Program-made: the position numbers and the translations under genes
Source: a virus
Reading direction: 5' to 3' (one strand)
IMG/VR virus record: IMGVR_UViG_3300042893_001103
Span: 8,190 to 72,189 of that record
DNA: 64,000 bases
Shown: in pieces, positions 24,596-64,000 of the stretch
Numbering within the stretch: position 1 is the stretch's first letter
Layout: the number at the start of each line of letters is the position of its first letter
The notes under the pieces: generated by a model
What the model saw: the letters and a program-made list of their open reading frames with translations, nothing else
What the model was told of the DNA's origin: nothing
The model's database searches: none

Positions 24596-27500
24596 ATGAG
24601 TCAGCAAGATATTCAATTTAAAGCCATTCCAGGCCAATTCAACATTGACGAGGCCCAAGGCGTCGTTGAGTGTTTCGTCGCCGGCATCGGCAATAAGGAC
24701 TCAGTAGGAGACGTTCTAATTACTGGAGCATTCACCAAAAGCCTTACCCGCCGCAAGCCCCGTGTTGTTTGGGGACACAACTGGAACGACCCAATCGGTA
24801 AAGTTCTTGAGATTTACGAAGTTGCCCCAGGGGACAGAAGACTTCCAACAAAGATGCTCAACGCCGGTATTGGTGGCTTGTACGCAAAGGTTCAATTCAA
24901 TCTCAACTCAGAAAAAGGTCGGGAAGCCTTCGCCAACGTCGCGTTCTTCGGACAAGAACAAGAGTGGTCAATCGGATACAAAACGCTTGATTCAATTTTT
25001 GACCCGAACATCCAAGCAAACATTCTAAAAGAAGTTGAACTTTACGAAGTATCGCCAGTACTACATGGTGCCAATCAATTGACTGGAACAATTTCTGTAA
25101 AGTCTGACGAAACAGCCGAAAAGCACATGCCCGGAATGATGATGCCTCACCATACTGGAATGAACCAAGGTCCAAAAATTATCGTCGTTAGACAGGGTGA
25201 TGATGACGACGATGACGACGACAAACCAATTTTCTCAGAGGGTCTTGCTCGGGCGCTTGGTGACAATGAAAAAGAAAGATTGACACGCGAACTACAAAGC
25301 AGAAGCGGTTCCTCAATTCAACTAGTTTCCGCTACTGAAAGCACGGCAAAGTTCAGAAGAATGACCTCTGATGGTCGTTCTGTAATGTACAGAATCGGAT
25401 ATCACACTCCAGACAATTACGTTACCTTTATGTTTGGCAAGCCTGAACTGGCAGACGGACAACAACCGAGTGGTTCACGTACGGTTGTTCCGTCACAGAT
25501 GCCTTCAATGCCAATGCAGGTCAAGCCTGGCGTGCCAACTGGCGCAACGAACTTCGTTGTTAGTCCTGAATACGTAATGCCTAAAGGTGAGGATTATGAA
25601 AAATCAGCCTTTGACGAAGAACTAGAAAATCTTGCTCAGATTCTTGACGAGACATTTGATGTAAAAGTTGGAAGAACGCTTAGTTCCCGCAATATGTCAA
25701 AACTAAAAACAGTCCTAGAGACACTTCAAGACATTGTTTCATCAGCGGAAAAAGATGTTGAATCAAAAAGTGATTACCTAATTCCTGTCAAACTGGAAAA
25801 CGCGTTTGAGACCAAGCAATTACTTGACCCAATTTTTGATTATCACAGGGTTGAATCTCACGTGACGGAAGATGGCATTGTCATCACAACCGAAGTAACA
25901 CAAGAATTTATAGAGGCTATTGGCGTAGCCGAAAAAGCCCTGGGGCGAACGCTAAGCGGGGGCCTGGGAAAATTAGGCCGCGCCGGTAGGGGCGCGGTAA
26001 ACTTTGACCCAAAAGCATGGGACGGTGACGGAGACGGAATCGTACAAGAAGGAACGCCGTACTCACGTCCTGCAATTCCTGGAGTAAACGACCGTGCATC
26101 TGGTGGAAGAGTTGACACCAATGCTGCAACCCGCGCATGGCAAAATCAACGCAGAAGCGGAATGGCTTCCCGTATGGGTAGCGATGACAACGCAGATGAA
26201 TACGACGAAGCAATGGGACCACCAATGCGACGCCCAAGCAGAGGTATGGCTGACGACCCAGTTGGTGACGCTGCTTCAGAAAACCTTGATAGAGACAGAA
26301 ACGCTGGCGCTGTAAGAAGTGGACTTAGTTCAAGCACTGCAGGTGTTGTCAAAATTGATATTCCTCAAATTGACAATGCCATAGAAGAATTGGCAGCCAA
26401 AGACATAGGAATGTCTCTTAAAAGATTCAGAGAACTAACAGACGAGGGTCGTCTTCCGGAACGTTATCAAAAAGCATTTTCGGACAGAGTTAAAGTTCTT
26501 AATGATATTTTTTCTAATTTAAGCAAAGAAAAACTAGACGAAAGTCCTGGAAAAGTGCTTTCAGAAATTAGAAAAAAATTAGTTGACACTCTTTCTTCTG
26601 ACGACAAAGAAGGCGACGGTTTCATTAGCCAATTTAACGATAGAAGAGAAATACAAAACTTTATAGACGGAATTGAAGAAGTTCTTAACTTGGCTTTTGA
26701 CGACTATGTTGACAGGGCTAGAGAAAATGGAACAGGCGAAGAAGCGGACGACCTTCAGGCCGAGTTGTTGTCTGACTTCACACAATCTTTAAAAAAAATA
26801 TCCGAAAAATCAAAGAACCTTTTTGATGCAAGAACAAAATCCTTCCGTGGAACAGAACCAGCAAAAGCCAAAAAGGAATCAGAATCAGAAAAAGAAAGAT
26901 TATTTGACTTGCTCAAAAATCTTCTTGACATGGAAGAACTTGCTAGGTACCTAGACAGCACAGAGGGCGTTGTTCCTACGGATGCATTTATTGACAGAAT
27001 CAGAAAGGGAAACATAAGTGACGAAGACCTAGTACAACTAAATGGCTTTTTTGAAGATGCACTAGAAAATATTATTACCCTTGACCCAAGCCTTGACCCA
27101 GAAAAATTAGCAAAAGAATTTTCTGATGCAATTAGAGAAGGTGCAAAAAATGATGAATCAGGAGTAATTCAGCGTATTGCAAAAGAACTGGGTGACGATG
27201 GCGTCAGTGAGGACCTCGTTCAATACCTCAAGGATGGTAGAGAAGGTTCTCCATTCCTTCCGAATAGAGGTAAAAAGGAAAGAGAAATACTTCGCGGCTT
27301 TGCTTCCAGAACCGGCGGTGGTGACTCAAAAGGTAAAAAATTTGATGTTAGGGATAGAAAACAAAGAGAAGACAAAATCGTTGAAATGTACAACGACGGT
27401 GAAACTGTTGGCGACATATCTCGCTTTTTAAGTTCCCAGCCTGGTTCAAATGGTATTTTTACGGAACTTGCTAACATTCGCAATGTTATAGATAAAAGAA

Positions 27501-30500
27501 GAAAAGCGGGAGACGTTCCTCTTCGTTCCGTCAATCCAAACAAGGAAAGACAAGCAACAACTAACCTACGTAATGAAATCATTAGACTTTATAACGATAA
27601 TGATGAATTGTCGTATCGTGAAATAGCAAAACTTACTGGTACAACCCAAGCCAATGTTACAAACACCCTTTCTTCAATGCGTAGAGGAAATGATTCTCGC
27701 ATTAGAAGCGGGGACAAAGTAAGAGGCTTTTCGTCTTCTACCGGTAGTGATGGAGAGAGTGGACTTGGTTCCTCATCTGACAAGCGCGAAATGGACATGA
27801 CGCTTGCTGAATATGCAGAACTAAATGAAGTTCTTAAAAAATATATGGATGAAAGCCAACTAGACGGCATCGGTGCCGACGAAGACATGCAAGTCATCCA
27901 GAACATTCTGGACAAACTTGATGAGAGTTCAGCCGCAAACGACTCAATCCCTCTTACGGATAAAGAAATTGACGACTACATGGACACTCTCACAAGAATG
28001 AGAGACAATGGTCCGGTTGAAGATTCAGACGATAAAGAATCAATAGATAAATTGATTGACTCTTTGAAGAAAACAAAAGACTCAAAAGATGGAACCTACG
28101 AATCAGATGCTCTTCAGCAGGCTGGAACCAGGCTTTCCCGTCCTTCTCGTGATGGACAAGGTGGCGGTCGTGGAAGAACAGCAAAACGCCCTCGCGGCTT
28201 TAAGAGTTCCAATGGAACAATAAACCCACACAAAAAACTTGATATAGAACTAGATGATTCTGAAATCGGCGAACTTCGTGACGAACTTCAGGGTTTTATG
28301 AAAATGACAGACAACCCTGCTCCGCTCAGGGCCATTGCTGAAAAACTTGAAAAAGCCACAAACGGCAAATTTTCAGTTGATAAAGACGAATACGAAGCAG
28401 TCATAAAAGAAATAGACAAAATGCGAACCGACAGAGGAGTGGTCACGTCTGATGTGGTTGGGGTTCTTGAGCAAGCAGCAGAATCTCAAAAAGGAAAATA
28501 CTCCAGTATTGATGTTCGTGGTGGACGAGGCTTTGAATCATCTACTGGTGGTGGCAAAAACAACGGAGCACCATCCGACATTCCTGAGACAATGCAAAAG
28601 CAACTCATCATGTGGGGTAGACAGCAGGGCGGACTCAGACTTGTCCAAGAAGCAATTCAGAGGTTTGACAAAGACAAGGGAACAATGCCGGCGTCGTACT
28701 GGAAGAGATTGCGCACCATGTATGAAAACATGGGGCCAGGTTCCGCTAGTGGTGCTGCTCGCAGAACTGGACGTAGGGGCATATTCGGTCGCGGAAAAGA
28801 TACAGACACTTCACCACGTGGTAGTGCTGGATTTATAATTGACGACAGACCAGTACCTAAAGGCTTGCTTGATAACACAATGTCAAACAACCCGATTGTT
28901 ACAGATGACTTCGTAGACACCAATTCTGGCCCCATGGGTGGCTCACAGGGTGGCGGCGTATTCAAGGACCCCAAGACTGGTAAGGAATATTACATCAAGC
29001 CGCCAAAGTCACAAACTCATGCAGAAAACGAATCACTAATGTCTCGTTTCTATGAAAGATTAGGTATTCCTGCTGGAAAAGTAAAAGTAGGAACCTACAA
29101 AGGTCGTCCAAAAATTGTTAGCGAAATGGTTCCAGGGGCAAAACAGGTTGACCATGAATCCGAAATAAAGAACTCAGCATGGAAGAAGGCAGTTCAAGAC
29201 ACTTTTGTGGCTAATGCATGGCTTGCAAACTGGGACGCTGTTTCAAACTCGGGAAACACCATTAAGGGCGGAGACGGTAAAGCGTACGTCATTGATGTTG
29301 GTGGTGCTGGTCTTTTCCGAGCAAGAGGAGAAGCAAAGGGCTCGGCGTTCGGTCCTATCGTCGGGGAAATGGAATCCTTGAGAGACCCAAATCAGTCGGG
29401 CGCTAGACGTGGTGTTGCATACTGGGGAGACATTCCTCCAGCAGAAATTGCTCGTCAGGTAAAAGCAATTGGAGCAGTATCAGATTCTGAAATCAAAGAA
29501 ATGGTTGATGCTGTAATTTCCGACAAAGGTGAAGCAAAGAAACTTTCTGACACCCTTATTGCGCGACGTGACTATCTGGTACAAAACTGGTCCACTGGCA
29601 AAAATAGTGGAACTGGCAGAAGAGGTCGTACTGGCTTTTCTTCGGAAACCGATAATTACGAAAGAAGAAACAAGAGGCCTGGCGTAGCGCCAGCAATGAG
29701 ACCTGCCGACTTTGAAGTACGTCCTCGTGACGGCGAGCCTACGGGTGTTGGCAAGGGTGGAGTAATGGGAACAAAGCCCGACCCCAAGTTCACTGGAGAC
29801 TCTTTTGACCAAGCCAAACCAGAAGAATGGGAAAAACTTACAATTGATGAAAAATGGGGTTGGATGCTTGGGGAAGGAAACCCTGAAAAGGGTGGAACGA
29901 TGTCCCCTGCCGCCTATCAGGGTGCAATGAGGAAACTTGGCGAAGAAGAAGCCAGGGAAGAAACAAAGCGCATGACTCCAGAAGAACGAAGAAAATCCCG
30001 TTCAGAATCAAGACAAAGCGCCATGGATGAACGTTCTGACAACGAGAAAGAAAGACTCACTTCCGAAAGAGAAGAGCGTCAAAAAGAAGCACAAGAATCA
30101 TCTAAGCGAGTTAAGGAAGAAGCAACTGCGGAGCAAGCGAAAGCCAAGAGACAGGCGCGTCTTGATGCTTTCAATGAATGGATTGATGACTCAATTCGTG
30201 AACTTTCAGGAATGGAATACGACGAAACAGACATCAATCCTGATTCTGAAGACATCTGGGACACTGTTTCCACAATCCTTGGCGTTGAAGACATCACTCC
30301 AAAGTCGCTAAAAGAAGCAATTGACGAACTTTCATCATATATTGACATTACTTCAGGAGAAAATGCTTACGAAAAGAAGAGTGTCGCTCGTGCTAACGCA
30401 CTATTGAAGAAACTCTTAAAGATGCAATCAGAGTATTCGGAAGACAAGTGGTTTAACGACAGAGAGGGTGGAGTGTCTGGATTCCAGTCTTCAACTGGCG

Positions 30501-31120: not shown

Positions 31121-31229
31121 ATAGTATGCGTTCTCGCTCAGAGGCGCATGCTAAGTTATACTTTTATAAACTATTCATAATGTGATATTGACACTCGTGT
31201 CTTTACTCGCTAAAAAACAGGAGTTACCA

Positions 31230-32606
31230 ATGAGCGAAAAAGTTGAAGTCAGTGTTGATGCGGACGGCAATGTTCTTAAGTGTGCCAAGGGCGCAAATGT
31301 TGCCGACTGCGGGTTTACCCCAGGTGCAAAAGTGTGCGGTAAGTGCGGAGCAATGCCTATCCAGATGAAGATGGTTCCAGTCACCGATGATGACTATGAA
31401 GTCAAGGGTGGAGACAAATGGGACGATAGTGAAATGTTTGACGCTATGAAAAAGCGTCAAAAGGGCACGGGCATGGGAATGCCTGGCGAAGAAGATGATG
31501 ACGAAGAGATGGATGACGAAGACGAGATGGCGTCAATGCCGTCATCCAAGAAGAAAATGTCTCTTGAAATTGAAGAAGACGACGAAGAAGAATACGACGA
31601 AGACGACGAAGAAGAAGACGACGAAGACGCCGAGATGAAAATGTACGACGGAGAAGTTGACCTAGAAGCAGCAAGAAAGAAACGTCTTGCCAACATGGGT
31701 GAAAAAGTCGCAGAACTTGGAAGAAACGCATACATGTGTGCTGTTGAAAGAAAAGTTTACCCAGGTGGTTCAGGCGTCTGTGACGATTGTCCTGGTGGAT
31801 GCTTGCCAGAGCGCGGAATGCCAGGTCTTCTTTCTGTTGAAGGAATTGCCGAAGAAATGTTTAAGGGCAAGGTTCTTGACTCTGGATATTCTTCAGATGC
31901 AGACATGTTCGTGGTTGACATTCAATCAAAGAGCGGCCGTGCGGTTGAAGTCTTTATTGATGGTACAACTGCAGAAGTTCTCGGTTTCCACAAACTTGAT
32001 GACAATGCCTTTGAGCAGAAGTCAGCACTTGATTCAATGATGGTAATTGACTTCCACGAAGCAGCAGAGATTGCAGTTAAGTCCATTCAGGGTGACGTTG
32101 TTGCTGTTGAGCCAGACATCTTTGAAGGCTTTGATGCATACGCAGTTGAAATTGAAGGAATTGACGGAAAGTCTTACGACGTATTCGTTTCACTTGACGG
32201 TGAAGTTCTTGGATACGACAAGTATGAGCCAGAAGAAGCAGAAGCCATTGAAGCAGAAGCCGCAGAGATTGCATTAAAGCGTGCATTCAATGAAGACATG
32301 CGCACACAAATGGCAGAAGAAGGAAAAGCACTTCCAGACGGTTCCTTTCCTATTTCTAACGTAGAAGACCTCAAGAACGCAATCAGCGCATACGGTCGTG
32401 CAAAAGACAAAGAAGCAGCAAAGAATCACATTATGAAGCAAGCCAAGGCTATGGGTCAGGAAAAACTTATCCCCGCCAACTGGGTAACCGGTGGAGCAAA
32501 ACTTGTTGAAGAAAAATCCGGAGAAGTTGACTCTGACCTTATGGCATCGCTTGTTGAGTTTGAACTCCTTGAGGCCGAGGTCAAAGACTCAGAACCAACA
32601 ATCTAG
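31230..32606 (+). CDS. Acidic head-associated protein with Cys clusters, tandem PepSY-like domains and a C-terminal DUF6582-like domain
   Basis: AGGAG SD before ATG 31230; AEEMFKGKVL...EVFIDGTTAEVLG and AAEIAVKSIQGDVVAVE...YAVEI...DVFVSLDGEVLG; ALPDGSFPISNVEDLKNAISAYGRA. Confidence 0.7.
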   Translation: MSEKVEVSVDADGNVLKCAKGANVADCGFTPGAKVCGKCGAMPIQMKMVPVTDDDYEVKGGDKWDDSEMFDAMKKRQKGTGMGMPGEEDDDEEMDDEDEMASMPSSKKKMSLEIEEDDEEEYDEDDEEEDDEDAEMKMYDGEVDLEAARKKRLANMGEKVAELGRNAYMCAVERKVYPGGSGVCDDCPGGCLPERGMPGLLSVEGIAEEMFKGKVLDSGYSSDADMFVVDIQSKSGRAVEVFIDGTTAEVLGFHKLDDNAFEQKSALDSMMVIDFHEAAEIAVKSIQGDVVAVEPDIFEGFDAYAVEIEGIDGKSYDVFVSLDGEVLGYDKYEPEEAEAIEAEAAEIALKRAFNEDMRTQMAEEGKALPDGSFPISNVEDLKNAISAYGRAKDKEAAKNHIMKQAKAMGQEKLIPANWVTGGAKLVEEKSGEVDSDLMASLVEFELLEAEVKDSEPTI

Positions 32607-44888: not shown

Positions 44889-47264
44889 ATGGAAGATTCG
44901 CTTGTTGGTAAAATTGCTGCCGTTAGGCAAGCAGCGGACATGGGCTGCTTCGGCGCGCATCAAATTTCAAATGGCGATTGGCTTCCATGCTCATCAACTA
45001 AACAGTTTTTGACAATTATGAACGGATTTGATGTCAAGTCAAGAATTTCTCTTGACGAGATGGAGAACTGGTCTTCAATAAGAAAGTCAAAAGGCAAAAA
45101 ACGCAAGAAGCGTTGGGAAAAACTTCGCGAGAGAAGAATTCTAGGAATTGAATCACTTGACAACGGTGGTCTTGTTTCTCCAAGAAATTCAATGAATATG
45201 GTTAATGGTGGCACTAACCCCCCAATAACTTATGGTGCTTCAAATCCTTCAAGCATGTCTACGAAGAGCATTCAGCCAGCATTCATGCCCAGAGACAATG
45301 ACCCTGACGTATTTGTGGACATTGAATCAGCAAGAAAAAGAGCACAACAACTTGGATGCATCGGTATAAGTAGAAGAATGTCAAAAGGCGGCAAAACCGT
45401 ATGGATGCCATGTACCAACATTACCGACTACAACAATTTGACAGGAATGACTGCTCTTGGAAGAAATAATCTTCAGAAAAGAAATGAAAAAATAGTCAGA
45501 ACCGTTATAAAAGAAAATCTTAAAAAGAAAAAAACAACGATTCAAGAAGATATATACGGCAAGGCTCTTGGCCCAAGAATACGAGGCATAGCCCGTGCGG
45601 CAATGTCTAGATTTGACCCTGATGCTTTTGACGGAGACGAAGATGGAATTATCCAGGACGGAACAGCGTTTGAAAGACCCAACACTCCGAATGCTCGCAT
45701 CCCCAAGACTGTAGATAGGGAAGTTTCTCCCTCCGAAGTTTCGGCAGTACGCAAGTGGATGAGTGCCATGACTTCTTCAGATATGGATTCCTTCCGAGGC
45801 GAACCGATTGAAGCATACGATGGTGTTCCTGGTTCAAGACGTGGCTTGGCATCTAGTGGGCCCGGTTTCATTATTGACCCCAAGGGTCCAAAACAAATGG
45901 GCGGAAGAATGGCACCAAAGCCATTGGCCATAACAGAACTAAGAAACCCAGAAGCCAGTCCGACCAATCCGTTTAGAAATCTTGGTGGAAGATTGATGAG
46001 CAAATTGATTAGAGGAATGGTAAAGCCCGAACACAGACGTAAGCAAGAGAGAACAACCTATCTAATTGGAGGCAATACTGGTTCCGGAAAAACCACCGTA
46101 CTTGACGAACACTTAATACCAAAAGGATTGGTTCCTTCACACGAAGAGGCTGCCCTTATTGACCCAGACTTTATTAAGAAAGGTCTTGTTGGATATGACG
46201 ATGGACAAGGCGCTGGTCGTGTTCACAGAGAGTCTCAAGCATCAACCGACAAGACAATCAGGGATGCCGTTTTGGACGAACTGGACATGGTAATTACGGG
46301 TTCTGGGGCATCAAGACAAATCCAACACATGCGTGAAGCGTCTGAGCGTGGTGAAAAAGTAGTGGGCCACTGGGTTCATGTTCCGCAACGAGAAGCATCT
46401 AGACGCATTAAGAAGAGAGTGGATGAGACCAACAGGTATATACCTGACAACACCGCCCACATGGCACAAAGCATTCCTAAGGTTATTTCAACAGGCTTTG
46501 AAGAAGACTTACTAGACGAGTTCTATTTATGGGACAACGATGTTCCAGCAGGTTCACCACCAAAACTAATTGCAAAAAAATCCAAAGGAAAAGATTTTGA
46601 GATATTTGACCAGTCAAAATTTGAAGAATTTGCTGGAAGTAAAAAATGGGCAGACACGTGGGTGGAAACGTCAGAAGACAGAGACGTGTCAAGAAAAGGT
46701 TTTGAGTCCTCAAGTTACACAGGCAAAGAAGCCGCAGTTGCTTTAAGAGAGTCTGGTTTTGAAGTAATCATTGACAAAAATATAGAAGTTCGTCTTCCTG
46801 CAGGAAGTGATGCAGAAAAATTCTTTATAGAACGAGTTCTACCATATATGCCAAACAAATTTGGAAGAACGAACACACACGCGTCACGACTTACCCTGCC
46901 AGGGATTCCAATTGTTGAAGACGTACAAAAGTTGCTCGGGGTGAGTATTGATAAAAGAAAAATTGTTGACAAAAACTATCGTAAAAAATTTAAAATGCAA
47001 CTCATGTCAAACGACCTAGAAGTTTTAGCAGAACTTTTTGCTAAAGCCCCTATTGTTGGTCCAAACGGCGAATCAAGGTTTGGCGATATGTTGCTTACTA
47101 ACGTTGGTGTTGAGTTTGATGAAACAGTAAAGCAAATTGCTAAAAAGGCTGGTTTTTTGGAAAAAGAAATTTCAATGTTGATAAGTGAAGGGTTCACGAA
47201 AGAAGATATTGAGAAAATGTCAAAAGAAGAAATACAAGAACTACTAGACGCGCTTCCGGAATGA
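44889..47264 (+). CDS. Protein with two DUF3721-like Cys modules, DGDEDG tag and zeta-toxin-like P-loop kinase
   Basis: AADMGCFGAHQ..WLPC and AQQLGCIG...WMPC; GGNTGSGKTT...IDPDFIK...VHRES...RIKKR...RYIP. Confidence 0.8.
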   Translation: MEDSLVGKIAAVRQAADMGCFGAHQISNGDWLPCSSTKQFLTIMNGFDVKSRISLDEMENWSSIRKSKGKKRKKRWEKLRERRILGIESLDNGGLVSPRNSMNMVNGGTNPPITYGASNPSSMSTKSIQPAFMPRDNDPDVFVDIESARKRAQQLGCIGISRRMSKGGKTVWMPCTNITDYNNLTGMTALGRNNLQKRNEKIVRTVIKENLKKKKTTIQEDIYGKALGPRIRGIARAAMSRFDPDAFDGDEDGIIQDGTAFERPNTPNARIPKTVDREVSPSEVSAVRKWMSAMTSSDMDSFRGEPIEAYDGVPGSRRGLASSGPGFIIDPKGPKQMGGRMAPKPLAITELRNPEASPTNPFRNLGGRLMSKLIRGMVKPEHRRKQERTTYLIGGNTGSGKTTVLDEHLIPKGLVPSHEEAALIDPDFIKKGLVGYDDGQGAGRVHRESQASTDKTIRDAVLDELDMVITGSGASRQIQHMREASERGEKVVGHWVHVPQREASRRIKKRVDETNRYIPDNTAHMAQSIPKVISTGFEEDLLDEFYLWDNDVPAGSPPKLIAKKSKGKDFEIFDQSKFEEFAGSKKWADTWVETSEDRDVSRKGFESSSYTGKEAAVALRESGFEVIIDKNIEVRLPAGSDAEKFFIERVLPYMPNKFGRTNTHASRLTLPGIPIVEDVQKLLGVSIDKRKIVDKNYRKKFKMQLMSNDLEVLAELFAKAPIVGPNGESRFGDMLLTNVGVEFDETVKQIAKKAGFLEKEISMLISEGFTKEDIEKMSKEEIQELLDALPE

Positions 47265-47403: not shown

Positions 47404-48765
47404 ATGTCAGACCAAGCAAGACTTACAGAATTGCAATCAACCCTTCGTGCCAAGATGGCAGACAACAAGGCGATTGCAGACTCATTCCGTATTGAAGAAG
47501 GAACCGTTGTTGTCAACGCTCAGCAAAAGAGCGCATTTGACAAAAACATGACCGACATCAAGGAAATCAAGGGACTCATTGAGGGCCTTGAGGCAATGAA
47601 CACAGTTGAATCATGGGGCTCACAAGCACCAGCAGAATCAGTTGCAGTTGCTGCAGCAGCAGGCTATTCATTGAAGGGCCTCGGCGCTTCATACTCAATC
47701 GGTGACTTGTTCCTCAACTCACCAGAGTTCAAGACCCTTTTGGGTGGTAAGAATGGCGCAAACATGCCTTCCCCATTCCAACTCGGAGCATCACTCACAA
47801 CTCACGGCGCATACGGCGTTAAGGACGTTTACTCAGCACTTCCATCAGGCACACTAGCCCGTGGTGCATCTGCTGACTTCGGTTCAATCCAGCGCGACCC
47901 AATGGTCATGTCACCACAGCGTGTAAAGCGTGTTCGTGACTTGTTCCCAAGCCGCACCACTTCAGCAGCAGTTATTGAATACTTCCGCATGCTTGGTTTC
48001 ACCGCAACAGGCGGCGGAACCAACAATGCAGGAGTTGTTGCTGAGCGTAACGCAGGAAACACCGCGTTTGCCGCTAAGCCACAGTCCTCAATGGTATTTG
48101 AAGGCCACCAGGCCCCAGTACGCACCATTGCTCACTGGGAAGCAGCACACCGTAACGTCCTTGCGGACGAGCCACAGTTGCGTTCAATCATTGACAACGA
48201 ATTGATGTACGGTCTCCGTCTTCAAGAAGATGCTCAAATCCTCAACGGTGATGGAACTGGCGAAAACCTTACTGGTGTTCTTCAGACTTCAGGTATCCAG
48301 AACTACTCATGGTCAAGCGGTTTGTACTCAGCAACCGCAGGAATGTCAGACACAAAGGCAGACGCAATCCGTCGCGCCGCTACACTGTCGTTCCTCGCTT
48401 ACTACGAGCCATCTGGTGTCGTTCTTCACCCGAACGATTGGGAAGACATTGAGTTGACCAAGGATGGCAATGGCCAGTATCTCGTTGCAGTTTCGGTTGC
48501 AATGGGCGGCGAGCCAAAGGTATGGCGTTTGCCAGTCGTTGAGACCCCTGCAATTCCAGAAGGCACCGCACTTGTCGGCGCATTCGGTACGGGCGCACAG
48601 TTGTACGACCGTGAGCAGGCTTCAATCCGCATCTCAGAGCAGCACTCGGACTTCTTCGTTCGCAACGCAATCGTTGTACTCGCAGAACAGCGCCTCGCCC
48701 TTGCGGTTAAGCGCCCAGAGTCATTCGTCAAAGTTACATTTGACAACGCTCCAACAGCCGAATAA
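47404..48765 (+). CDS. Major capsid protein, HK97 fold with N-terminal delta-like scaffold
   Basis: AGGAG SD; RVRDLF, VRTIAHW, LADEPQL.SII.NEL.YGL...ED.QILNGDG.GEN, LHP.DW..I.L.KD.NG.Y, F.RN....AEQRL.LAV.RPESF. Confidence 0.97.
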   Translation: MSDQARLTELQSTLRAKMADNKAIADSFRIEEGTVVVNAQQKSAFDKNMTDIKEIKGLIEGLEAMNTVESWGSQAPAESVAVAAAAGYSLKGLGASYSIGDLFLNSPEFKTLLGGKNGANMPSPFQLGASLTTHGAYGVKDVYSALPSGTLARGASADFGSIQRDPMVMSPQRVKRVRDLFPSRTTSAAVIEYFRMLGFTATGGGTNNAGVVAERNAGNTAFAAKPQSSMVFEGHQAPVRTIAHWEAAHRNVLADEPQLRSIIDNELMYGLRLQEDAQILNGDGTGENLTGVLQTSGIQNYSWSSGLYSATAGMSDTKADAIRRAATLSFLAYYEPSGVVLHPNDWEDIELTKDGNGQYLVAVSVAMGGEPKVWRLPVVETPAIPEGTALVGAFGTGAQLYDREQASIRISEQHSDFFVRNAIVVLAEQRLALAVKRPESFVKVTFDNAPTAE

Positions 48766-48835: not shown

Positions 48836-49384
48836 ATGAAGGAAAACGATGCGTTTAAATTTATTGGAGACATGCCATCTTTCAATGAACTTCTCGGTGA
48901 TGTCTCGTCCCTAACCCCAGAAGACTGGTTGAAATACGTGCAACGTAAAAAAATTGGCGGTGCAGCAGGGGGTAATACTGACACCATCCCATTGGTCTAT
49001 GACGTGATGCAAAAACTCAACTCGGACGTAGTGCACGAACATTACAGACAATTTAGTAAGTATCTAGATGAAGTCGTTCTTGCCACGATGGAAACAATTG
49101 GAGAAGTAAAAATTCAACAATCAATACTGGCAAGACTTAGGGCAAAAACAACTATTCCCAAACATAAAGATGTCGGAAATCCATTAACCGCAAAAATCCA
49201 TAGCCAGACTCACAGAATACACGTTCCAGTTATAACCAATGAAAATTGCATATTTACCATTGGTGATGAATCAAAGAACCTAAAGCCTGGCCAAATATGG
49301 ATTGTAGACAACGTAGGAAGACACCATGGTGTCAAGAATAGTGGAGACGAAGACCGAGTGCACCTAATCATAGACGCCATCTGA
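48836..49384 (+). CDS. Asp/Asn beta-hydroxylase-like 2OG-Fe(II) oxygenase
   Basis: IPKHKD...RIHVPVITN...G.IW...HGVKN...RVHLIID. Confidence 0.85.
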   Translation: MKENDAFKFIGDMPSFNELLGDVSSLTPEDWLKYVQRKKIGGAAGGNTDTIPLVYDVMQKLNSDVVHEHYRQFSKYLDEVVLATMETIGEVKIQQSILARLRAKTTIPKHKDVGNPLTAKIHSQTHRIHVPVITNENCIFTIGDESKNLKPGQIWIVDNVGRHHGVKNSGDEDRVHLIIDAI

Positions 49385-49886: not shown

Positions 49887-50149
49887 TACTCAAGCCAGGA
49901 ACAGACCCAGAAGAAGCCGCAAAACTGAGGGCTTCAATGAATAAAATTCATCAGCAGATTGATGACTTCTTAACACTCAAAGACACTATTGAGTCAGACA
50001 ATCCTGCAAAGGATGCGTGGAAAGCGGTATATGGGTGGGACAATCCAGCGCTTGACGAGAACACAAAAGAAGGCAAAGCGTTGAAAGCCAGAATAGCAAG
50101 AATGTTCGGTAAAGATATTGATACTCAAGAAAAAGACGAGAAAAACTAA
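49883..50149 (+). CDS. Small hypothetical protein
   Basis: Coupled to neighbours at both ends. Confidence 0.6.
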   Translation: MILKPGTDPEEAAKLRASMNKIHQQIDDFLTLKDTIESDNPAKDAWKAVYGWDNPALDENTKEGKALKARIARMFGKDIDTQEKDEKN

Positions 50150-51153
50150 TGGATTCAATTTTTTCTTTTGACGAAAGCAAATGGTCTGTTTTTGATGTTT
50201 CGTACTCTATTGAACTCAAAGAACAGTACCCAGAGATTTGGGCTATGTCTGGTGGCTCCAAGTCAGACTACATACATGAAGTCTTGTTAGAGATATTTGA
50301 AAGTGGTGGAGTGGCGACAACACCGGAACAAGTGGAAGTTCTTGAACTGAGAGAATCATGGATTAACAGGCATGTTTACGACAGTCAGCCAGCAGGTTAC
50401 GTGGCTCAAGTTAAGTGGCTTGCCGTATCTTCAAATGGCGAAGCGTGGCAGAAAAGAAAAATCAACGAAGAAGTTTCAAAATTCCACACAAGAACAGAAT
50501 GGATTCTTGAAAAAGGTCTTCCCTGCTGGAAGGGCTACGAGCAAGTCGGAATGAAGATGGGGAAAAAGGGGAAAATGGTTCCCAACTGTGTCCCCATTAA
50601 GACCAAGAGCGCTCAACTCAAAGACCCCAAAGGCGGCCTTACCGCCGCAGGACGAAAGTTCTTTAAACGCACGGAGGGGGCAGACCTGAAACCTGGAGTA
50701 AAAGGCGCTGCCAACACCCCAGAGAAGATGCGCAGAAAAGGGTCGTTCCTCACCAGATTCTTCACCAACCCGTCTGGGCCAATGAAGGACGACAGGGGAC
50801 GCCCTACGCGTCTTGCTTTGTCGGCTGCAGCGTGGGGGGAACCTGTCCCTCAGGACGCCTCAGACGCTGCTGCGCTGGCTGCTAAGGGCCGCAGAATGCT
50901 TGATAGGTACGAGAGAGCCAAGAAAAAAGATTCTTTTGAAAACATTGAAACAAAAGTATTTACTGATTCTTCTAATGAAGGAAAATTCAAGAGTTATATT
51001 GATTCTTTAGACGACAAAAAGTTTGAAGAATTATTTCCAGACGATGACCAAAGTAGTTGGAATATACCAACGGAAGAAAAGTGGATATTTGATGTTGCTG
51101 GTGCTTTCCTGAGAAGGTCAATAACAAACAGACGGCGCAAAAGAAGAAGGTAA
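50149..51153 (+). CDS. Modular head-associated protein (CWKGY..VPNCVP motif and DUF6321-like domain)
   Basis: PCWKGYEQVGMK..KGKMVPNCVP; KDPKGGLTAAGRK...RRKGSF..RF...PTRLALSAAAWG. Confidence 0.7.
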   Translation: MDSIFSFDESKWSVFDVSYSIELKEQYPEIWAMSGGSKSDYIHEVLLEIFESGGVATTPEQVEVLELRESWINRHVYDSQPAGYVAQVKWLAVSSNGEAWQKRKINEEVSKFHTRTEWILEKGLPCWKGYEQVGMKMGKKGKMVPNCVPIKTKSAQLKDPKGGLTAAGRKFFKRTEGADLKPGVKGAANTPEKMRRKGSFLTRFFTNPSGPMKDDRGRPTRLALSAAAWGEPVPQDASDAAALAAKGRRMLDRYERAKKKDSFENIETKVFTDSSNEGKFKSYIDSLDDKKFEELFPDDDQSSWNIPTEEKWIFDVAGAFLRRSITNRRRKRRR

Positions 51154-56994: not shown

Positions 56995-56995
56995 G

Positions 56996-57616: not shown

Positions 57617-57735
57617 CTAGATAAAACATGGCAGTTCCATATATCCACATCTTTATCATCGGTTCTATGTCATTTATAAAACTCATTAGATAAATCTATC
57701 CGCACACATCAACGATGTATTTGTATTTATGGGCG

Positions 57736-58329: not shown

Positions 58330-58816
58330 ATCTATCAAGCACCTCATCTAAAAGGATTGGTTTGTAACCAGTCTGTTCAACGCTTACGCACTGATACCAG
58401 GGGTCTGGAAGGGATTCGGAGTGTAAGTGTCCATGAATGTTGCCTTTATAGCGGTATTTCTGGTGGTCAGAGACTGGAATGTGAGTTAAAACAAATCCGT
58501 CGTACGAAAAAGTGCCCATGATGTCATAAAAATATGGGGTGTAAACATTTAAAGGAAGTCTGTCGTGATTGCCCTTTATTAATAATTTCCTACCATGTAA
58601 GAACCGCATCGTTTTGACACCTTGCTTGTCTATGGCAACATCACCAAGGTGGATAACCGTATCCTCAGGGCCTACTGTCTCATTCCACAACTGAATCATC
58701 TCTTCGTCCATATCTGAAGCGGAATCCCACGGACGTAACTTGTCGCCGTGCTTGGCTGAGAACTCGCAAATGCGTTGGTGTCCCCAATGGGTGTCGGCGG
58801 TAACAAATATTGACAT
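58322..58816 (-). CDS. Calcineurin-like metallophosphoesterase
   Basis: ADTHWGH, HLGD, GNHD, THIP, HGHLH. Confidence 0.92.
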   Translation of the reverse strand: MSIFVTADTHWGHQRICEFSAKHGDKLRPWDSASDMDEEMIQLWNETVGPEDTVIHLGDVAIDKQGVKTMRFLHGRKLLIKGNHDRLPLNVYTPYFYDIMGTFSYDGFVLTHIPVSDHQKYRYKGNIHGHLHSESLPDPWYQCVSVEQTGYKPILLDEVLDRYV

Positions 58817-58985
58817 ATCTCCATCGTACCGGAGAGAAGTAGGAACTCAAACGTTTTGTATGGATTTATCCAATAGTGGGCTAGACCTCAAAATTTGTGG
58901 TGTGCCCCCCCACGCACGGCCGGCCCGTCTGAAAAGAAGCCCCGAGAATCGCCTTACGGGGTCAGAAAACGACCACTTATAGTAG

Positions 58986-59039
58986 TTATCCACACCCTGT
59001 GAATACCACCCCCTGTGGTTGTCCACACCCTGTGGATAA
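58986..59039. promoter_or_regulatory. Cluster of DnaA boxes in two inverted pairs
   Basis: TTATCCACA (58986)-ccc-TGTGAATAC (58998); TTGTCCACA (59019)-ccc-TGTGGATAA (59031). Confidence 0.75.
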
Positions 59040-59048
59040 AGGTCAAAG

Positions 59049-59077
59049 CGAACATCTGTACGACGAACACATGTACT
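59049..59077. promoter_or_regulatory. Tandem Gram-positive-type SOS-box-like sites
   Basis: CGAAC-ATCT-GTACG and CGAAC-ACAT-GTACT versus consensus CGAAC-N4-GTTCG. Confidence 0.5.
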
Positions 59078-59318
59078 ACAGGTACCTATGGAAGTGCCTA
59101 TGGACCCACCATATGAACACCTCATACAAACAGTGTCAAGTAAATAGCCCATCAACCATGACGCCATACCTGATTGTGAATATCACCCTCTGGCATATCC
59201 AAAAGTGCGCCTCTCAAGCACGCTTTTGCACACACATCAATCACATCACCAAGTCGCATCAAACTATTAGTTACACACACTTCACACACCACACAGCGAG
59301 GTGTTCTACAATGAATCA

Positions 59319-62300
59319 ATGCCCTTCTCTTATGACATAGAACCAAACGACTCGTCTCGTCTAAGACGTCACATGTCAAGAGTAAAGAGTGATGACGCTC
59401 AAAGAATAGAAGTCAAAGCACTAGGCATGAACCTAGGTCAACTCGCAAGAGGCGCACAAGTCTTTGACCCTAACGCATACGATGGTGATGGTGATGGACT
59501 AGTACAAGACAGCACACCCTTTGAAAGACCGGCGGTGTTGTCTAACATTGCCTCCATAGCAAGAGGTCTCTCAAGCACCACGGGTGGCTACGGGTCATAC
59601 ACACCAGCAGGTTCTTGGACAGTAGGCCTCACCAATGAAGAGGTGGCAGAGAGGGCAATACCTGACAACCCTGCTGTTTTCATTGGCATGCTCAACGCTC
59701 AAGGCCCCATGGGTAGTACAGATGTGTACCTACTAGAGGCTCTCAACGATGTTATCTTTGACCCTGAGGGCGTTGCTAAAATACGTCAATCACTAATTAA
59801 AACATTAGATGATAGACCTGCATTACGTTCTGCCTTTGACAGGTTTGGTTGTCCACCCATAGGTCTACACCCCAAGGGCAAGCCATACAAAGGTCAAGCA
59901 CATGGTCATTACGCTATCTTCATTAACGAAGCAGCCATAGATGAGGGCGCAGTATCACGCTGGCTAGGTAAAACACCGGCACTAGCAAAACTATTCAATG
60001 AATCCATGATAGCGCCCAAGATAAAGGGCGTGAAGCGAGCATTCTCAGGAGACAACGCAGAGGACACCATCACTCATGAGTGGGGTCACTACTTGAACTA
60101 CCTAGTAGCAAACATCGCACCAGACGCACAACTGCGTGAACTCGCAGCGGCAATGGCATCAGACTCGTGGGGTTATGCACAGTGGAGAAGAACAGCATTC
60201 ACAGCGTTACCCAAAGGGGCAGAAAGATTATTCTCCTACTTTGGCGAGATTACAAGCAGTGAAAACTGGAACAAGAAACATGAACTGCCCGATGAGGATG
60301 TTCCGTTCATCAAGAGCGTGTATGGAACCACATCACCAGTTGAGTTCTTTGCCGAATCAGTGCAAGCATACTTCTCCCCCAACCCTAAAGATAGTGAACT
60401 TCTCAACTACGAAGGAACAGTGATTGTTGAGCAAATGCTTGGCATTAGACAAGTATCTCGTAGTGGATTTTCGTCACAAACAAGCGGTCTCAAAAGCAGT
60501 ACGGGTAACTCCATGCGTGGTAAGACGCCACAAGAAATTGCAGACATTGTAGTACCTAAGACCAAAGAGGAAGCAATCGCATTAGCCGACGCACATAACG
60601 CTTTGCTTGTTGACCCAGGTGGTACTCCATACACCGCATCAGAACCAAACACACTGAAGTTGATTACCCCCAAGGGCATTGACGGTATGGACTTCTCACC
60701 AGAAGCAGTGTCTCGTATGAAAGAGATGATAGTAGAAGCATTATCAAACAACCCCAACTTCTATGAAGCAGTACAAAGATTCGGCATGCCACCTGTCATG
60801 ACAACCAAACCAGGGGAAAGACTAGATGGCTCCTACGCTGTTGCGGGTGTAGAAGGTTTTCCTGCTATCACTATTGACTCTACTGTTAGGGAAGAAGCCC
60901 TAGTCAATGGGTTCCCTAATCGCATGTGGGAAGATGAACCATTCATCAAGGGAACATCACAATTCCTAATGGACCCCACGAGTGATGGGATGTTCGTTCA
61001 TGAATGGGGTCATTATCTGAATCGTTTAGTGATGAACGTACACCCAGATGAAGACATGAAAGACTTAGCACGCTTTTGGTGGCTAGATACTTGGGACCTA
61101 GATGAATACATACCACGTATTTCAAAACTTCTACGCAGATTCATAAAGCCAGACGACAGAGTGTCAGGTAGATACTCTTACGCTCAGAGATTCGGTAAAG
61201 CAGTAAAAAATAATAAGTCAGTCAACTTCACGGGTTACCCCCATGTAAAGACTCAGTATGGGCAGTCACAACCATCAGAAGCGTTTGCCGAAGCAGTGAC
61301 AGCAGTGCTCTCTAGCGACATAGACGAGAAGGATATGGTCAGTCCTGAACTACGCAAGGACGTTCTTGACATACTCGGTTTCTCGCCATCAGCAAAAGAA
61401 GTAGATAGAGCGGGTAGTTCAGAAGGAAGAAGTGCTGGATTCGCCTCAAAGACAGTAACAAGAGGTCTTGGCGTAAGGCTTATTACCAAGTCCGACCCGT
61501 TCACTCCACTCAATGGTCCTGACTGGCTAAAAGATGCTACGGATGAAGAAATAGCAGAGGCTGTCGTACCTACAAACATGGATGACTCCATAGCGCTAAC
61601 CGTGATGAACACGGCGTACGGTGCAGACCCAGCAAATTTTCCCACAGAAGCAACAGTAATTGCTGAACTAGCGGAAAGATTGCTATTCAAAGCAGAATGC
61701 ACAGACAGTACGGGTGCCCTAATTCGTGATGCAAACGGAAACGCTGCTTTTGTGTTTGATGTACCGATTGACTTCACTCCAGCAGGTAGACAAAAAGCCA
61801 AAGACATGCTCAGACGAATGATGGCAGAATCACCAGAGTTTGCATGGATGATTAGACGCTTCGGGTGTCCACCGGTATTGATTATGGATGAACAAAAACT
61901 TACCGACCTAAGAAACCAGGTTCAGGCGCTGCGTGATTCAGGAATGGACATACAGTTGCCTCCCCATCTTGATAGTGACTCTATTGGTGGTTTTTCAATA
62001 GCAACTCTTGGTATTACGCTTAGAACAAAACCAGGCAGAGATGACTTGCCGATGGGCTTCAATAGAGGGATAGCAGCGAGAAGAAGAACGGGAAGAAAAA
62101 TAACTAACCCAGACGGCACCATAGAGGACGAAACAGAACACTGGATGAACAACTTCGGTATTTCTCTTCCTGATGTCGGTATTCATGAATGGGGTCACTG
62201 GTTTTATTCAACCGTTCTAGGAAACAAATTACTATACAAGACGTATGGAATTAGAGGAAAAATGGGAGACAGACAATCTCGTCTTTCGTACCTATTTCCT

Positions 62301-64000
62301 GGTGTTCCTACTGCGGACGTTGAAAAAATGACAAAAGAATTCCTTGATGCTTTTGACGCAGAGGGTTTTATTCCTTTCAACACCATGAGTGAAATGCATA
62401 TTGACTCAATAGCCAAAGCGGCATACAGAAGCATAGGTAACAACTTAAGAAACAGACCACTACCAGAACAACTGGCTGCTGCTCAAAGGTTCACCGACTT
62501 AGTACAAGACTATTTAAATAACGTAGTTAACTCATCACGCGGGTGGTCTCCATCACGCGCACAAGAGTTTGCTGACCAAATAGCGCTTGAGTTTCCGTAC
62601 CTAGTAAATGACATGCCTCCACTAATAGCGGGAACCTATGCAACAGCAACTCGTCAAGAACTGTGGGCAGAGGCAGTATTACTATTCTCTTCACCTGACT
62701 CAAAGTTGAAAGCCAAGTACCTAACGCCAGAGATAGAAGCGTTTATTGCTTACGCTTTTGGGTTGAAGCCAGACAGAGACCCCAATACTCCATATCAAAA
62801 ACCTTGGGCATCTCGCAGTGGCTTCTCTTCTTCTTCACGGGTAAGAAGACTTCATGCAGCAGAGGACAGTATTCCCGACAGAGTCTCTGACAAAGATGAC
62901 GGGTTAGCAAGCAGAACTACTGGAGCATCAACTGCAAAGATGAGTCGTGAAGCCTCTAGTACTTCACGTTTCACTGTTGGTGACTACGACTTTGACATAA
63001 CCGACGAAGACCTATCTACATACGATTGGGATACCGCCTACGACCAGTGGACAACATGGTCGGGTAACTGGCGTATGCGTCACTTATCCTCAGCAATGAT
63101 GGGTATAGAACAGCAACCAACCAAGGGTGGCGAAGAGTCATTATCAACCGTCCACGAGATAATGCGTTCGGGTGAACTGTCAAACGCACCAGACCACGTC
63201 AAAGAATCGGTTCGTGAATCTCTAATCAACACTCACAAGACTATGGAAAAGATATCCATGGGTGAGACTATTAGTGATAGACCCCTCTACAGAGGCTTGG
63301 GTTCTGTTCCTGACGATTCAGAGATACTCATGGCAGAACAAGGCGAGACGATAACATTCCCACTTAGTGCTTTCACTCCAGACAGAAGCCTTGCTACAAC
63401 GTTTGCTGACATGAATGCCGAGAGTGACAAAAAAGTAATCCTCCAACTCAGAGATGGTGCCCATGTAGCATCTAGCGATTACACGACACAAATAAGAGAC
63501 CTAGAAAGCGACTGGATAGAAGTACCTATTGAATCTGTTACTCAGGGAGAATTTACTGTCGTCTCCAAGAGCGAGAAAGACGGGTACACAGTAGTAGAAC
63601 TGTCTCATGTAAATACGTTTGACCCATTAGCAGGAAGAATGATTCCCACAAACGCTCGTGAAGGTTTTGCTTCTTCCAGTATGAGGCCAGAGCGACGAGT
63701 GTCAGATAGTGCCATCCGTACGCTGACGGACAATATGGACTTCCTTCGTGACAATCCACCAATCGGCAAGGGTGGCAAAGACCTAGATGACCAGTGGGCA
63801 CAGAAGACAATAGAGAAACTACGCAGTGGGGAGATATCCCAAGAAGACGCATTTGACCTAATGAATGTCGTCATTGAGATACTCAACAACGGGTTCAACG
63901 AAGACCCAAGCCAGAAAGAAAACCCAGACGGCAAACTTCTTGCTTACCAAAAACTATCCAAGCGTCTACGCAGGCTCGCTGTCGGCGCTATGGACAAAGA
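59319..64000 (+). CDS. Giant polyvalent protein (>1560 aa, runs off the window): DGDGDG tag, three tandem zincin modules, R-S-E-type ADP-ribosyltransferase-like module
   Basis: Hand-translated with no stop to 64000: EVKALG...FDPNAYDGDGDGLVQDSTPFERP; HEWGH at 60075, 60999 and 62184, each followed by Y....E.[FW]AE; PLYRGL...SAFT...IESVTQGEF near 63280-63560; TACAAT 6 nt upstream of the ATG. Confidence 0.9.
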   Translation, partial: MPFSYDIEPNDSSRLRRHMSRVKSDDAQRIEVKALGMNLGQLARGAQVFDPNAYDGDGDGLVQDSTPFERPAVLSNIASIARGLSSTTGGYGSYTPAGSWTVGLTNEEVAERAIPDNPAVFIGMLNAQGPMGSTDVYLLEALNDVIFDPEGVAKIRQSLIKTLDDRPALRSAFDRFGCPPIGLHPKGKPYKGQAHGHYAIFINEAAIDEGAVSRWLGKTPALAKLFNESMIAPKIKGVKRAFSGDNAEDTITHEWGHYLNYLVANIAPDAQLRELAAAMASDSWGYAQWRRTAFTALPKGAERLFSYFGEITSSENWNKKHELPDEDVPFIKSVYGTTSPVEFFAESVQAYFSPNPKDSELLNYEGTVIVEQMLGIRQVSRSGFSSQTSGLKSSTGNSMRGKTPQEIADIVVPKTKEEAIALADAHNALLVDPGGTPYTASEPNTLKLITPKGIDGMDFSPEAVSRMKEMIVEALSNNPNFYEAVQRFGMPPVMTTKPGERLDGSYAVAGVEGFPAITIDSTVREEALVNGFPNRMWEDEPFIKGTSQFLMDPTSDGMFVHEWGHYLNRLVMNVHPDEDMKDLARFWWLDTWDLDEYIPRISKLLRRFIKPDDRVSGRYSYAQRFGKAVKNNKSVNFTGYPHVKTQYGQSQPSEAFAEAVTAVLSSDIDEKDMVSPELRKDVLDILGFSPSAKEVDRAGSSEGRSAGFASKTVTRGLGVRLITKSDPFTPLNGPDWLKDATDEEIAEAVVPTNMDDSIALTVMNTAYGADPANFPTEATVIAELAERLLFKAECTDSTGALIRDANGNAAFVFDVPIDFTPAGRQKAKDMLRRMMAESPEFAWMIRRFGCPPVLIMDEQKLTDLRNQVQALRDSGMDIQLPPHLDSDSIGGFSIATLGITLRTKPGRDDLPMGFNRGIAARRRTGRKITNPDGTIEDETEHWMNNFGISLPDVGIHEWGHWFYSTVLGNKLLYKTYGIRGKMGDRQSRLSYLFPGVPTADVEKMTKEFLDAFDAEGFIPFNTMSEMHIDSIAKAAYRSIGNNLRNRPLPEQLAAAQRFTDLVQDYLNNVVNSSRGWSPSRAQEFADQIALEFPYLVNDMPPLIAGTYATATRQELWAEAVLLFSSPDSKLKAKYLTPEIEAFIAYAFGLKPDRDPNTPYQKPWASRSGFSSSSRVRRLHAAEDSIPDRVSDKDDGLASRTTGASTAKMSREASSTSRFTVGDYDFDITDEDLSTYDWDTAYDQWTTWSGNWRMRHLSSAMMGIEQQPTKGGEESLSTVHEIMRSGELSNAPDHVKESVRESLINTHKTMEKISMGETISDRPLYRGLGSVPDDSEILMAEQGETITFPLSAFTPDRSLATTFADMNAESDKKVILQLRDGAHVASSDYTTQIRDLESDWIEVPIESVTQGEFTVVSKSEKDGYTVVELSHVNTFDPLAGRMIPTNAREGFASSSMRPERRVSDSAIRTLTDNMDFLRDNPPIGKGGKDLDDQWAQKTIEKLRSGEISQEDAFDLMNVVIEILNNGFNEDPSQKENPDGKLLAYQKLSKRLRRLAVGAMDK

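Follow-up and report, generated by a model that had tools for sequence, protein, structure and literature searches.

The DNA analysed here, referred to as the window, is the final 64 kb (64,000 nucleotides) of a 72,189-base IMG/VR virus record, IMGVR_UViG_3300042893_001103 (CheckV completeness 48%), and it holds six giant open reading frames (ORFs A to F), four of which combine a putative Lys cleavage site, a conserved tag and repeated short linkers among their cargo domains. The head module lies on the plus strand in the order portal, A, an acidic protein of 474 amino acids (aa), B, a 199-aa ORF, C, D, E and major capsid protein (MCP), and is faced by the terminase gene on the minus strand (Table 1). 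All the ORFs described in a first-pass annotation of this sequence are open, A to E with complete coordinates and F running off the contig end; as that annotation stated, five of the six lie between the portal and capsid genes, and A is itself the prohead protease. F stands outside the head module, 10.5 kb past the capsid gene.

The tag, FDPxA[WFY]DGD[GE]DGxxQ[ED]xT[PA][FY]xRP, has one match each in A (aa 470), D (aa 250), E (aa 242) and F (aa 49), and none elsewhere among the 10 ORFs tested. Searching the DNA with a back-translated degenerate pattern gave 4 forward and 0 reverse matches, with 0 for a reversed-pattern control. The four copies are 38-56% identical over 70 aa and differ at synonymous codon positions, which indicates old paralogues under protein-level constraint rather than a recent DNA repeat. 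Each is preceded, 17-23 aa upstream, by the site K|[AG][LI]G and then by a Gly/Arg spacer, just as first described. No Pfam or PHROG family matches the tag, and a literature search found no description of the grammar, which the first-pass annotation had also held to be undescribed.

A profile built from the four copies, a search that annotation had proposed, retrieved from 1.84 billion cluster representatives 636 at E<=1e-3, of which 147 reach E<=1e-10; of 573 candidate places in a scan of IMG/VR, 331 were confirmed. The tag prefers three positions, near residues ~25-60, 215-280 and 435-610, corresponding to the F, D/E and A types respectively. Across 57 distinct tagged ORFs taken from related loci, K[AGS][LI]G and the Gly/Arg arm nearly always precede it; more distant variants (EPYDPDAxDGDGDGIVQ[ED]GTxWERP) likewise stand behind an [IL]ExK| site, and in some relatives the tag is N-terminal, with only a short basic leader before it. 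A tblastn search with the 62-aa tag region against 50,697 GenBank phage records returned nothing at E<=1, a weak negative because the low-complexity filter of BLAST probably masks DGDGDG; the pattern DGDxDG...[ED] is absent from all frames of a 41-kb region of Gordonia phage Gray and a 29-kb region of Brevibacterium phage Cantare. In an AlphaFold2 model of D (52-row alignment, mean predicted local distance difference test score, pLDDT, 70.7) the tag (250-299) scores 72-82 and is predicted to fold, and the K site and arm fall in a segment with pLDDT<50 (202-243).

The protease identity of A is well supported. Residues 23-169 match Peptidase_S78 in Pfam (44.4 bits against a cut-off of 21), the ORF matches PHROG 80, head maturation protease, at E 1.9e-27, and the protease domain is 41-45% identical to annotated capsid maturation proteases of Gordonia phages. 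The capsid protein matches Phage_capsid (E 8.9e-44) and, in the PDB, HK97 gp5 chains (E 2.4e-52), with its N-terminal ~90 aa falling outside the HK97-fold match. Where this helical, delta-like N-terminal region ends, at aa 91, the sequence reads SLK|GLGASYS. Its Lys is kept in all nine of the closest capsid proteins from related contigs, followed by [GS]LG in seven of them, and the corresponding site in Cantare is EAK|SLGEAF. In HK97 itself, the 282-residue mature chain begins at S104 of ...FNK103|SLGSD, a boundary taken from the shift in position between the mature and the full-length PDB chain. Gordonia phage Gray has an untagged protease that ends exactly in ...FGLEVK, the same P-side as in D (LEVK|GIG) and F (IEVK|ALG), so the fusions look like cargo appended behind the natural protease C-terminus, the two being joined at a capsid-type cut site. 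Within D, K227 and G230 are at least 90% conserved among 52 orthologues, K227 lying inside a pLDDT<50 segment of the model. The earlier proposal that the maturation protease trims the leaders at K has therefore gained support of an indirect kind, from the capsid K|GLG, the HK97 K103|SLGS and the ...LEVK end of Gray, and we infer that the S78 protease would cut at the K sites of the capsid protein and the giants alike.

Behind the tag, the cargo is punctuated by the linker G[FLM]xS[SRTKEQ], which the first-pass annotation had also recognised. It occurs 23 times in the 4692 residues that follow the K sites (A 11, D 3, E 2, F 7), whereas 2000 shuffles average 1.62 and never exceed 7; for a stricter form the count is 16 and the shuffle average 0.14. 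No match falls in the 928 residues ahead of the K sites, and 14 other ORFs (9673 residues) contain 7 loose and 1 strict matches. At least one loose match, GDGFISQ at aa 675 of A, looks like chance. The same polarity holds among the 57 distinct tagged ORFs, 55 of which have no linker upstream of the tag and 47 of which have at least one downstream. A logo from 342 distinct sites reads as an R-rich stretch (-4 to -1), G, [L49 M32 F19], [A42 R32 S11], S, [R37 S29 T13], [S30 T20 R14], G. In D, orthologues as distant as 29% identity all keep G464, and at least 90% of them keep S467 and R468, although these residues sit within a disordered stretch.

Mapping linkers onto domain boundaries, as had been suggested, placed them in low-confidence inter-domain segments of the D and A models and near homology break points. 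All three D linkers start in segments with pLDDT<50, as do seven of the nine inside the A model (aa 500-1699, mean pLDDT 62.9), the other two beginning 1-2 residues after one; the corresponding binomial probabilities are 0.007 and 0.009. In comparisons with 200-odd relatives, confined to the cargo zone, break points lie no more than 15 aa from a linker at rates above random in A (32% vs 18%), D (49 vs 10), E (39 vs 13) and F (62 vs 11). The order and content of cargo modules vary between orthologues, which is the only use made of a single-linkage module clustering that over-merged. The linkers also differ between lineages. The tag group of the window uses GL, GM and GF forms, a subgroup with tag PGVND[FY] uses G[LM][SA]SG (2.24 per 1000 aa) plus RLSSG, and a PGINTN subgroup uses GMxS (2.56 per 1000 aa). 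Tagged relatives that seemed to be without linkers carry other repeated junction motifs (P0032 GLSSG x9; P0029 RGLASG x9; P0076 R[GR]LSSG x13-14; P0069 GDSSRSK x4-6, with SSRS x9), which indicates a lineage-specific linker code. We consider it probable that the linkers are polyprotein cleavage sites.

The cargo itself was assigned with uneven confidence. The zeta toxin reported in the first-pass annotation stood, with aa 383-524 of E matching Zeta_toxin (PF06414) at 34.3 bits against a cut-off of 22.3, and at 36.7 bits when the module was searched in isolation. The same ORF matches DUF3721 in Pfam at 44.5 bits; its region ahead of the K site carries two DUF3721 motifs, GCxGAH...PC, that hold all four of its cysteines. 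Cysteine is scarce in the four tagged ORFs (A 1, D 0, E 4, F 3), and makes up 0.1% of tagged relatives. The HipA/PI-kinase-like domain survives as a lead for aa 1312-1679 of A, but not as a Pfam match: ESM Atlas places it at 0.90-0.93 to PI3_PI4_kinase, HipA_2 and LepB_N clusters, and Foldseek to CtkA (3akk, E 8.4e-3, probability 1.00). Where several domains like ADP-ribosyltransferases (ARTs) had been reported, one stands as a lead, aa 1195-1448 of F (ESM Atlas 0.95, 171 features shared with ADPrib_exo_Tox clusters, no Pfam match), and one more weakly, in D, whose model fold resembles six uncharacterised phage proteins at E<=1e-3, with ART-PolyVal-like entries weaker at E 0.014-0.026. Against the PDB, Foldseek found nothing for the D model at E<=0.001; its best match, a cyanophage A4 pre-ejectosome chain at E 0.38, is not usable. 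The reported helix-turn-helix (HTH) domains fall below the Pfam cut-off in the window but are clear in relatives, with HTH_28 in 4 and Sigma70_r4_2 in 3 of 18 relatives.

Pfam searches with 20 isolated modules at E<=1 gave only sub-threshold matches, Zeta_toxin excepted, so the ART and zincin calls rest on motifs, ESM Atlas and weak fold matches. Cargo domains recognised in relatives comprise NUDIX, DUF3626, ADPrib_exo_Tox, ART-PolyVal (in 2 of 37 tag-bearing relatives), PI3_PI4_kinase, HipA_2, RNase_T, GmrSD_C, HTH_28 and Sigma70_r4.

ORFs B and C lack the tag and share instead an RCPxG..RFT motif, which the first-pass annotation had noted and which we find conserved in 21 distinct related ORFs. 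Each has exactly two cysteines, both within the RCPxG..RFT..C loop, and this sole Cys pair suggests a disulfide or metal-binding knuckle, a second shared motif of head proteins. The K site claimed for both is convincing in B (EFK|SLG, aa 164) but weak in C (YSVK|VGILG, aa 60). All four reported HExxH motifs are present, at aa 571 of B and aa 253, 561 and 956 of F, in modules without a match to any Pfam peptidase family. Of 31 distinct B-type ORFs or fragments 23 keep the HExxH, and among those that are complete 6 of 9 do; this conservation makes it a candidate for a second protease, presumably packaged. The S78 protease is a plausible alternative candidate for cutting the linkers, both site types being small-hydrophobic-small. 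A single protease serving both K site and linkers was considered and is weakened, in that linker dialects change and the K site does not. By our estimate the linkers would be cut by a zincin (~35%), by S78 (~25%) or by something else (5%), the remainder falling to linkers that are not cut.

Table 1. Positions of the main features of the window, counted from its first nucleotide.
Feature	Position	Strand	Evidence and content
Four large ORFs (769, 537, 1573 and 491 aa)	432-11827	-	No Pfam match
Large terminase, divergently oriented from head module	20836..22179	-	Pfam Terminase_6C and Terminase_6N
Portal, long Pro/Gly/Met-rich C-terminal extension	22433..24487	+	Pfam Phage_portal, E 3.8e-48
ORF A, 2174 aa	24596..31120	+	Peptidase_S78 aa 23-169, ~280-aa spacer region, K447|ALG, tag, cargo, 11 linker matches
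A: K447 site, Gly/Arg spacer and tag core (aa 447-492)	25934..26071	+	Motif matches
A module aa 901-1043, helix-turn-helix hints	27296..27724	+	Sigma70_r4_2 E 2.5e-4, below cut-off
A module aa 1312-1679, protein/lipid-kinase-like (HipA / PI3-4K / CtkA-like)	28529..29632	+	ESM Atlas, Foldseek
Acidic 474-aa protein, Cys-rich N-terminus	31182..32606	+	Conserved neighbour; homologues in 36 loci
ORF B, 1887 aa	32623..38286	+	EFK164|SLG, CPPGTPAANRFTNFRGEGC loop aa 199-217, HExxH aa 571, one linker aa 1114
B: RCPxG..RFT..C loop	33217-33273		Both Cys of B
ORF C, 668 aa	39270..41276	+	CPEGYQYGGRFTDSRFSTC loop aa 121-139; ~650-700 aa in relatives
C: RCPxG..RFT..C loop	39630-39686		Both Cys of C
ORF D, 1095 aa	41273..44560	+	226-aa N-terminal domain, K227|GIG, tag aa 250-272, linkers 351/448/464, 632-aa C-terminal region
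ORF E, 791 aa	44889..47264	+	Two DUF3721 motifs, K225|ALG, tag aa 242-264, zeta-toxin-like P-loop kinase aa 383-524, linkers 319/604
E: region before the K site	44889-45560		DUF3721 motifs
HK97-fold MCP, delta-like N-terminal region ending SLK91|GLGASYS	47404..48765	+	Pfam Phage_capsid, HK97 gp5
Asp/Arg beta-hydroxylase-like protein	48836-49384		Pfam E 1.5e-14
DUF6321 protein, stand-alone	50149-51153		
ORF F, at least 1560 aa (contig-end cut; 3100-3700 aa in relatives)	59319..63998	+	32-aa leader, K33|ALG, tag aa 49-71
ORF F cargo			Three paralogous HExxH zincin modules, ART-like module aa 1195-1448, 7 linkers

Several neighbouring genes deserve mention. The acidic protein has eight Cys close to its N-terminus and long Asp/Glu runs, gave no Pfam or PHROG match, and is a candidate for a scaffold or core protein; its homologues in related loci invariably stand directly after ORF A. 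The portal extends ~300 aa past its Pfam domain (aa 56-382), with a low-complexity run PGMPGMPGMP..., and carries K|SVG at aa 17, which might be an extra trimming site. Directly after the capsid gene lies the Asp/Arg beta-hydroxylase-like gene, present in five related loci, whose product might act on the Asp/Asn-rich tags or on the capsid. The DUF6321 protein, also after the capsid gene, has its counterpart inside a tag-bearing protein of another lineage (1 of 37 scanned), indicating that the module can be either free or tagged cargo. The four large minus-strand ORFs could encode tail proteins or other structural proteins.

Related loci repeat the gene order TerL-portal-A-acidic-B-C-D-E-MCP, and each of five long related records (86-132 kb) holds 3-5 tagged ORFs of 790-3222 aa. 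Judged by sequence, the family appears to be one of uncultured phages of about 130-150 kb, with capsid and protease closest to those of actinobacterial myoviruses: the closest isolates for these two proteins are Gordonia phages of the genus Bendigovirus and Brevibacterium phage Cantare (capsid protein 48% and protease domain 41-45% identical), isolates that have sheath and tube genes. Six loci found by scanning contigs of metagenome-assembled genomes (MAGs) were assigned to Acidimicrobiia (two), Actinobacteria (one), Gammaproteobacteria (two) and Rhodothermales (one). In Cantare and the Bendigovirus phages several genes, one for a VIP2-like ADP-ribosyltransferase among them, lie between portal and protease; in Gordonia phage Gray (6739-19841) this interval holds genes for an RNA ligase, a VIP2-like ADP-ribosyltransferase and an HTH protein of 971 aa. 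Because untagged relatives already keep effector genes in this place, the head-module position of effectors predates the tag system.

From these features we propose, with a probability of about 55% for the explanation as a whole, that the giants A to F are phage polyvalent effector polyproteins built into the head. It is very probable that they enter the head and that the S78 prohead protease trims them. The giants would co-assemble into the prohead, A because it is the prohead protease and the others, as gene position and the shared site suggest, along with it. S78 would then cut after the Lys of xx[VL]K|[AGS][LI]G in capsid protein and giants, removing propeptides of 32-446 residues, so that the mature proteins would begin with a Gly/Arg-rich arm and the tag, a mini-domain of ~50 residues with a DxDxDG loop. 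A possible role of the tag is that of a shared handle by which cargo is held or positioned inside the head and perhaps led out at infection, which is the least secure step. No weight is given here to the further idea that the Gly/Leu-rich stretch behind the K acts as an encapsulin cargo-loading peptide does. Finally, a phage enzyme (the packaged zincins of B and F, or else S78) would cut the R-rich linkers, G[LMF]x S[SR][ST]G, freeing separate kinase-like, ADP-ribosyltransferase-like, zeta-toxin-like, DNA-binding and peptidase modules.

This proposal has close precedents and clear differences from them. Polyvalent proteins, as set out in the text of their founding description, are giant multi-domain proteins among the virion genes of portal/terminase phages, in which one to five zincin peptidases are interspersed with ART, kinase, NUDIX and DNA-binding domains, and which were proposed to be packaged, injected and autoprocessed (Iyer et al. 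2017, PMC5512222). The giants here are likewise encoded among virion genes of a portal/terminase phage and are likewise multi-domain (A with protease, HTH hints and a kinase-like module, E with DUF3721 and Zeta_toxin, F with three HExxH motifs and an ART-like module); for the zincin, the commonest hub domain of polyvalent proteins, the four HExxH motifs, which have no Pfam peptidase match, may be the counterpart. That text, supplementary files aside, contains no equivalent of the K site, tag or linker, and none of the words calcium, Excalibur, EF-hand, linker, low-complexity, disordered or glycine (PMC5512222).

The giants also resemble MuF-fused toxins and the capsid maturation protease-MuF fusions of actinophages, where effector or minor-head domains are likewise fused to a head-assembly protein. 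A BFVD entry named "capsid maturation protease and MuF-like fusion protein" is among the weak fold matches of the D model (E 0.14), and Pfam detected no MuF (Phage_Mu_F) domain in the six ORFs or their modules. In phage T4 the loading signal is a short N-terminal peptide that is removed, the protease is of the gp21 type with Glu-type sites, and there is a separate scaffolding core. Here, by contrast, the conserved element follows the putative cut and would stay on the mature protein, the protease is of the S78/HK97 type with a putative cut after Lys, the capsid protein has its own delta-like region, and the cargo is polyprotein with linkers, so that the resemblance is one of logic only. That logic, in the T4 internal proteins and Alt, is of diverse anti-host proteins that have in common only a short conserved signal, the capsid targeting sequence (CTS), by which they are loaded into the prohead, and that are trimmed by the prohead protease (PMC3012670). 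In the parts of the SPN3US account drawn on here, many head-internal ejection proteins of this giant phage lose N-terminal propeptides of 20-254 residues to the prohead protease at a shared motif (PMC10052503), lengths comparable to the 32-446 residues here; SPN3US and phiKZ differ in protease family and motif and have no fusion to the protease, and those parts of the SPN3US account describe neither a post-cleavage tag nor repeated inter-domain linkers.

A number of observations weigh against our proposal. Among tag matches with a listed source, all are metagenomic or from MAGs and none is from an isolate, so that packaging and cleavage are what we infer from sequence. Five more distant capsid proteins read EVK|EAVQ, without [GS]LG, and HMMER places HK97 K103|S104 opposite residues ~144-146 of the capsid protein and not 91, in a weakly aligned part. 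Arg occupies linker position -1 in 23% of sites only, which argues that the linker is not a site with K/R-type P1. Thin alignments and Gly/Ser-rich composition lower pLDDT, making the domain-boundary comparison not fully independent; some disordered segments have no linker, and the break points come from related sequences and are not independent events. The constancy of the K site while linker dialects change argues against one enzyme reading both. HExxH in cis is uncorrelated with linkers, occurring in 15 of 57 proteins with at least three linkers and 20 of 54 with none, and homologues of the F-type zincins were found in two of five related records, all incomplete. Linkers cut inside the head would leave the tag on the first module only. 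Lastly, the tag is retained in all protease fusions inspected, where a signal for packaging alone would be seemingly redundant, and this argues against a simple packaging signal. A complex prediction for the capsid protein (13-row alignment) with the tag (38-row alignment) scored 0.00 in two runs without controls and is uninformative either way.

A rival reading is the two-protease model of the first-pass annotation in a strict form, in which the tag is a transferable address for packaging or ejection, S78 removes only the leader, and a packaged HExxH metalloprotease of B or F cuts G|[LMF] in all linkers, either inside the head or once injected. The tag is indeed the sole element common to A, D, E and F, whose regions before the K site are unrelated, and its N-terminal position in some proteins, together with the independence of linker dialects from the K site, fits such a scheme. 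Many zincins prefer a hydrophobic residue at P1', and an invariant G followed by L, M or F would suit such a pocket. The wide retention of the B-type HExxH and the three zincin modules of F would supply the enzyme, and autoprocessing by a zincin (MPTase) is proposed for polyvalent proteins in the text of the founding paper (PMC5512222). The same scheme has to accommodate a tag kept in the fusions, where the protease domain should already ensure incorporation, linkers that do not track HExxH in cis, and F-type zincins not found in three of the five incomplete records; we regard it as rather unlikely.

Less likely again, in our view, is that the tag is a calcium-binding structural module of Excalibur or EF-hand-like type, with a stabilising or regulatory effect on the proteins, and the linkers are conserved and flexible hinges, docking or modification sites, or recombination joints. 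The tag core DGDGDGxxQE does resemble the Excalibur loop DxDxDGxxCE, with Gln in place of Cys, and one tag-profile match is an Excalibur protein by Pfam. An hhalign comparison of the tag with P0075, however, covers 21 columns (52% identity) at a probability of 21.6%, no protein of the window matches Excalibur (PF05901) at E<=0.01, and these results leave the tag outside the calcium-binding family. Shuffling of modules among relatives at the linkers would fit recombination joints, and the co-encoded kinase-like and ART-like cargo would fit a variant in which the linker Ser is phosphorylated or the linker Arg ADP-ribosylated. Proteolysis is nevertheless favoured by the strict pairing of tag and upstream K site even in distant lineages, with the same site in the capsid protein, and, by analogy, by a motif at each inter-domain junction, which is usual for viral polyprotein processing.

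That the giants are late cytoplasmic or assembly proteins (scaffold-like or for host takeover) outside the virion, and that self-cleavage of A at K447 lets its protease part alone be packaged, seems to us improbable: the giants are known from sequence and not from virions, F lies away from the head module and the protein mass to be fitted into a head is very large, but five of the genes stand in conserved order between portal and capsid genes, the giants bear the capsid protein's type of cleavage site, their cargo types match those of packaged polyvalent proteins as the founding text describes them (PMC5512222), and Cys is nearly absent from the four tagged ORFs and tagged relatives.

Returning to the proposal of head-packed effector polyproteins, the original observation is confirmed and extends to a large family, and its interpretation, which reaches beyond sequence and predicted structure, is partly supported. 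The polyvalent concept would be extended by an N-terminal prohead-protease carrier, since in the founding paper's text prohead-type peptidases of polyvalent proteins stand at C-termini only and such a carrier is unreported (PMC5512222). Tentatively, we also entertain a modular code of address and punctuation, in which any cargo placed behind K site, arm and mini-domain would enter an HK97-type prohead and be trimmed by S78, the linkers being read by a co-packaged zincin, with ~20 effector domains per virion; if true, the prohead protease itself would now carry the largest string of effectors.

Detailed knowledge of how tailed phages select the proteins to be packed into the head and injected is confined to a few models (T4, P1, phiKZ-like). 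The system described here is a widespread, sequence-defined candidate for the packing step in HK97-type phages. If it operates as proposed, injected effector repertoires would become predictable from metagenomes, the cassette-like shuffling of effector modules would be explained, and parts would be at hand for loading foreign proteins into HK97-fold shells; a tag that proved transferable would amount to a natural signal for loading cargo into HK97-fold capsids.

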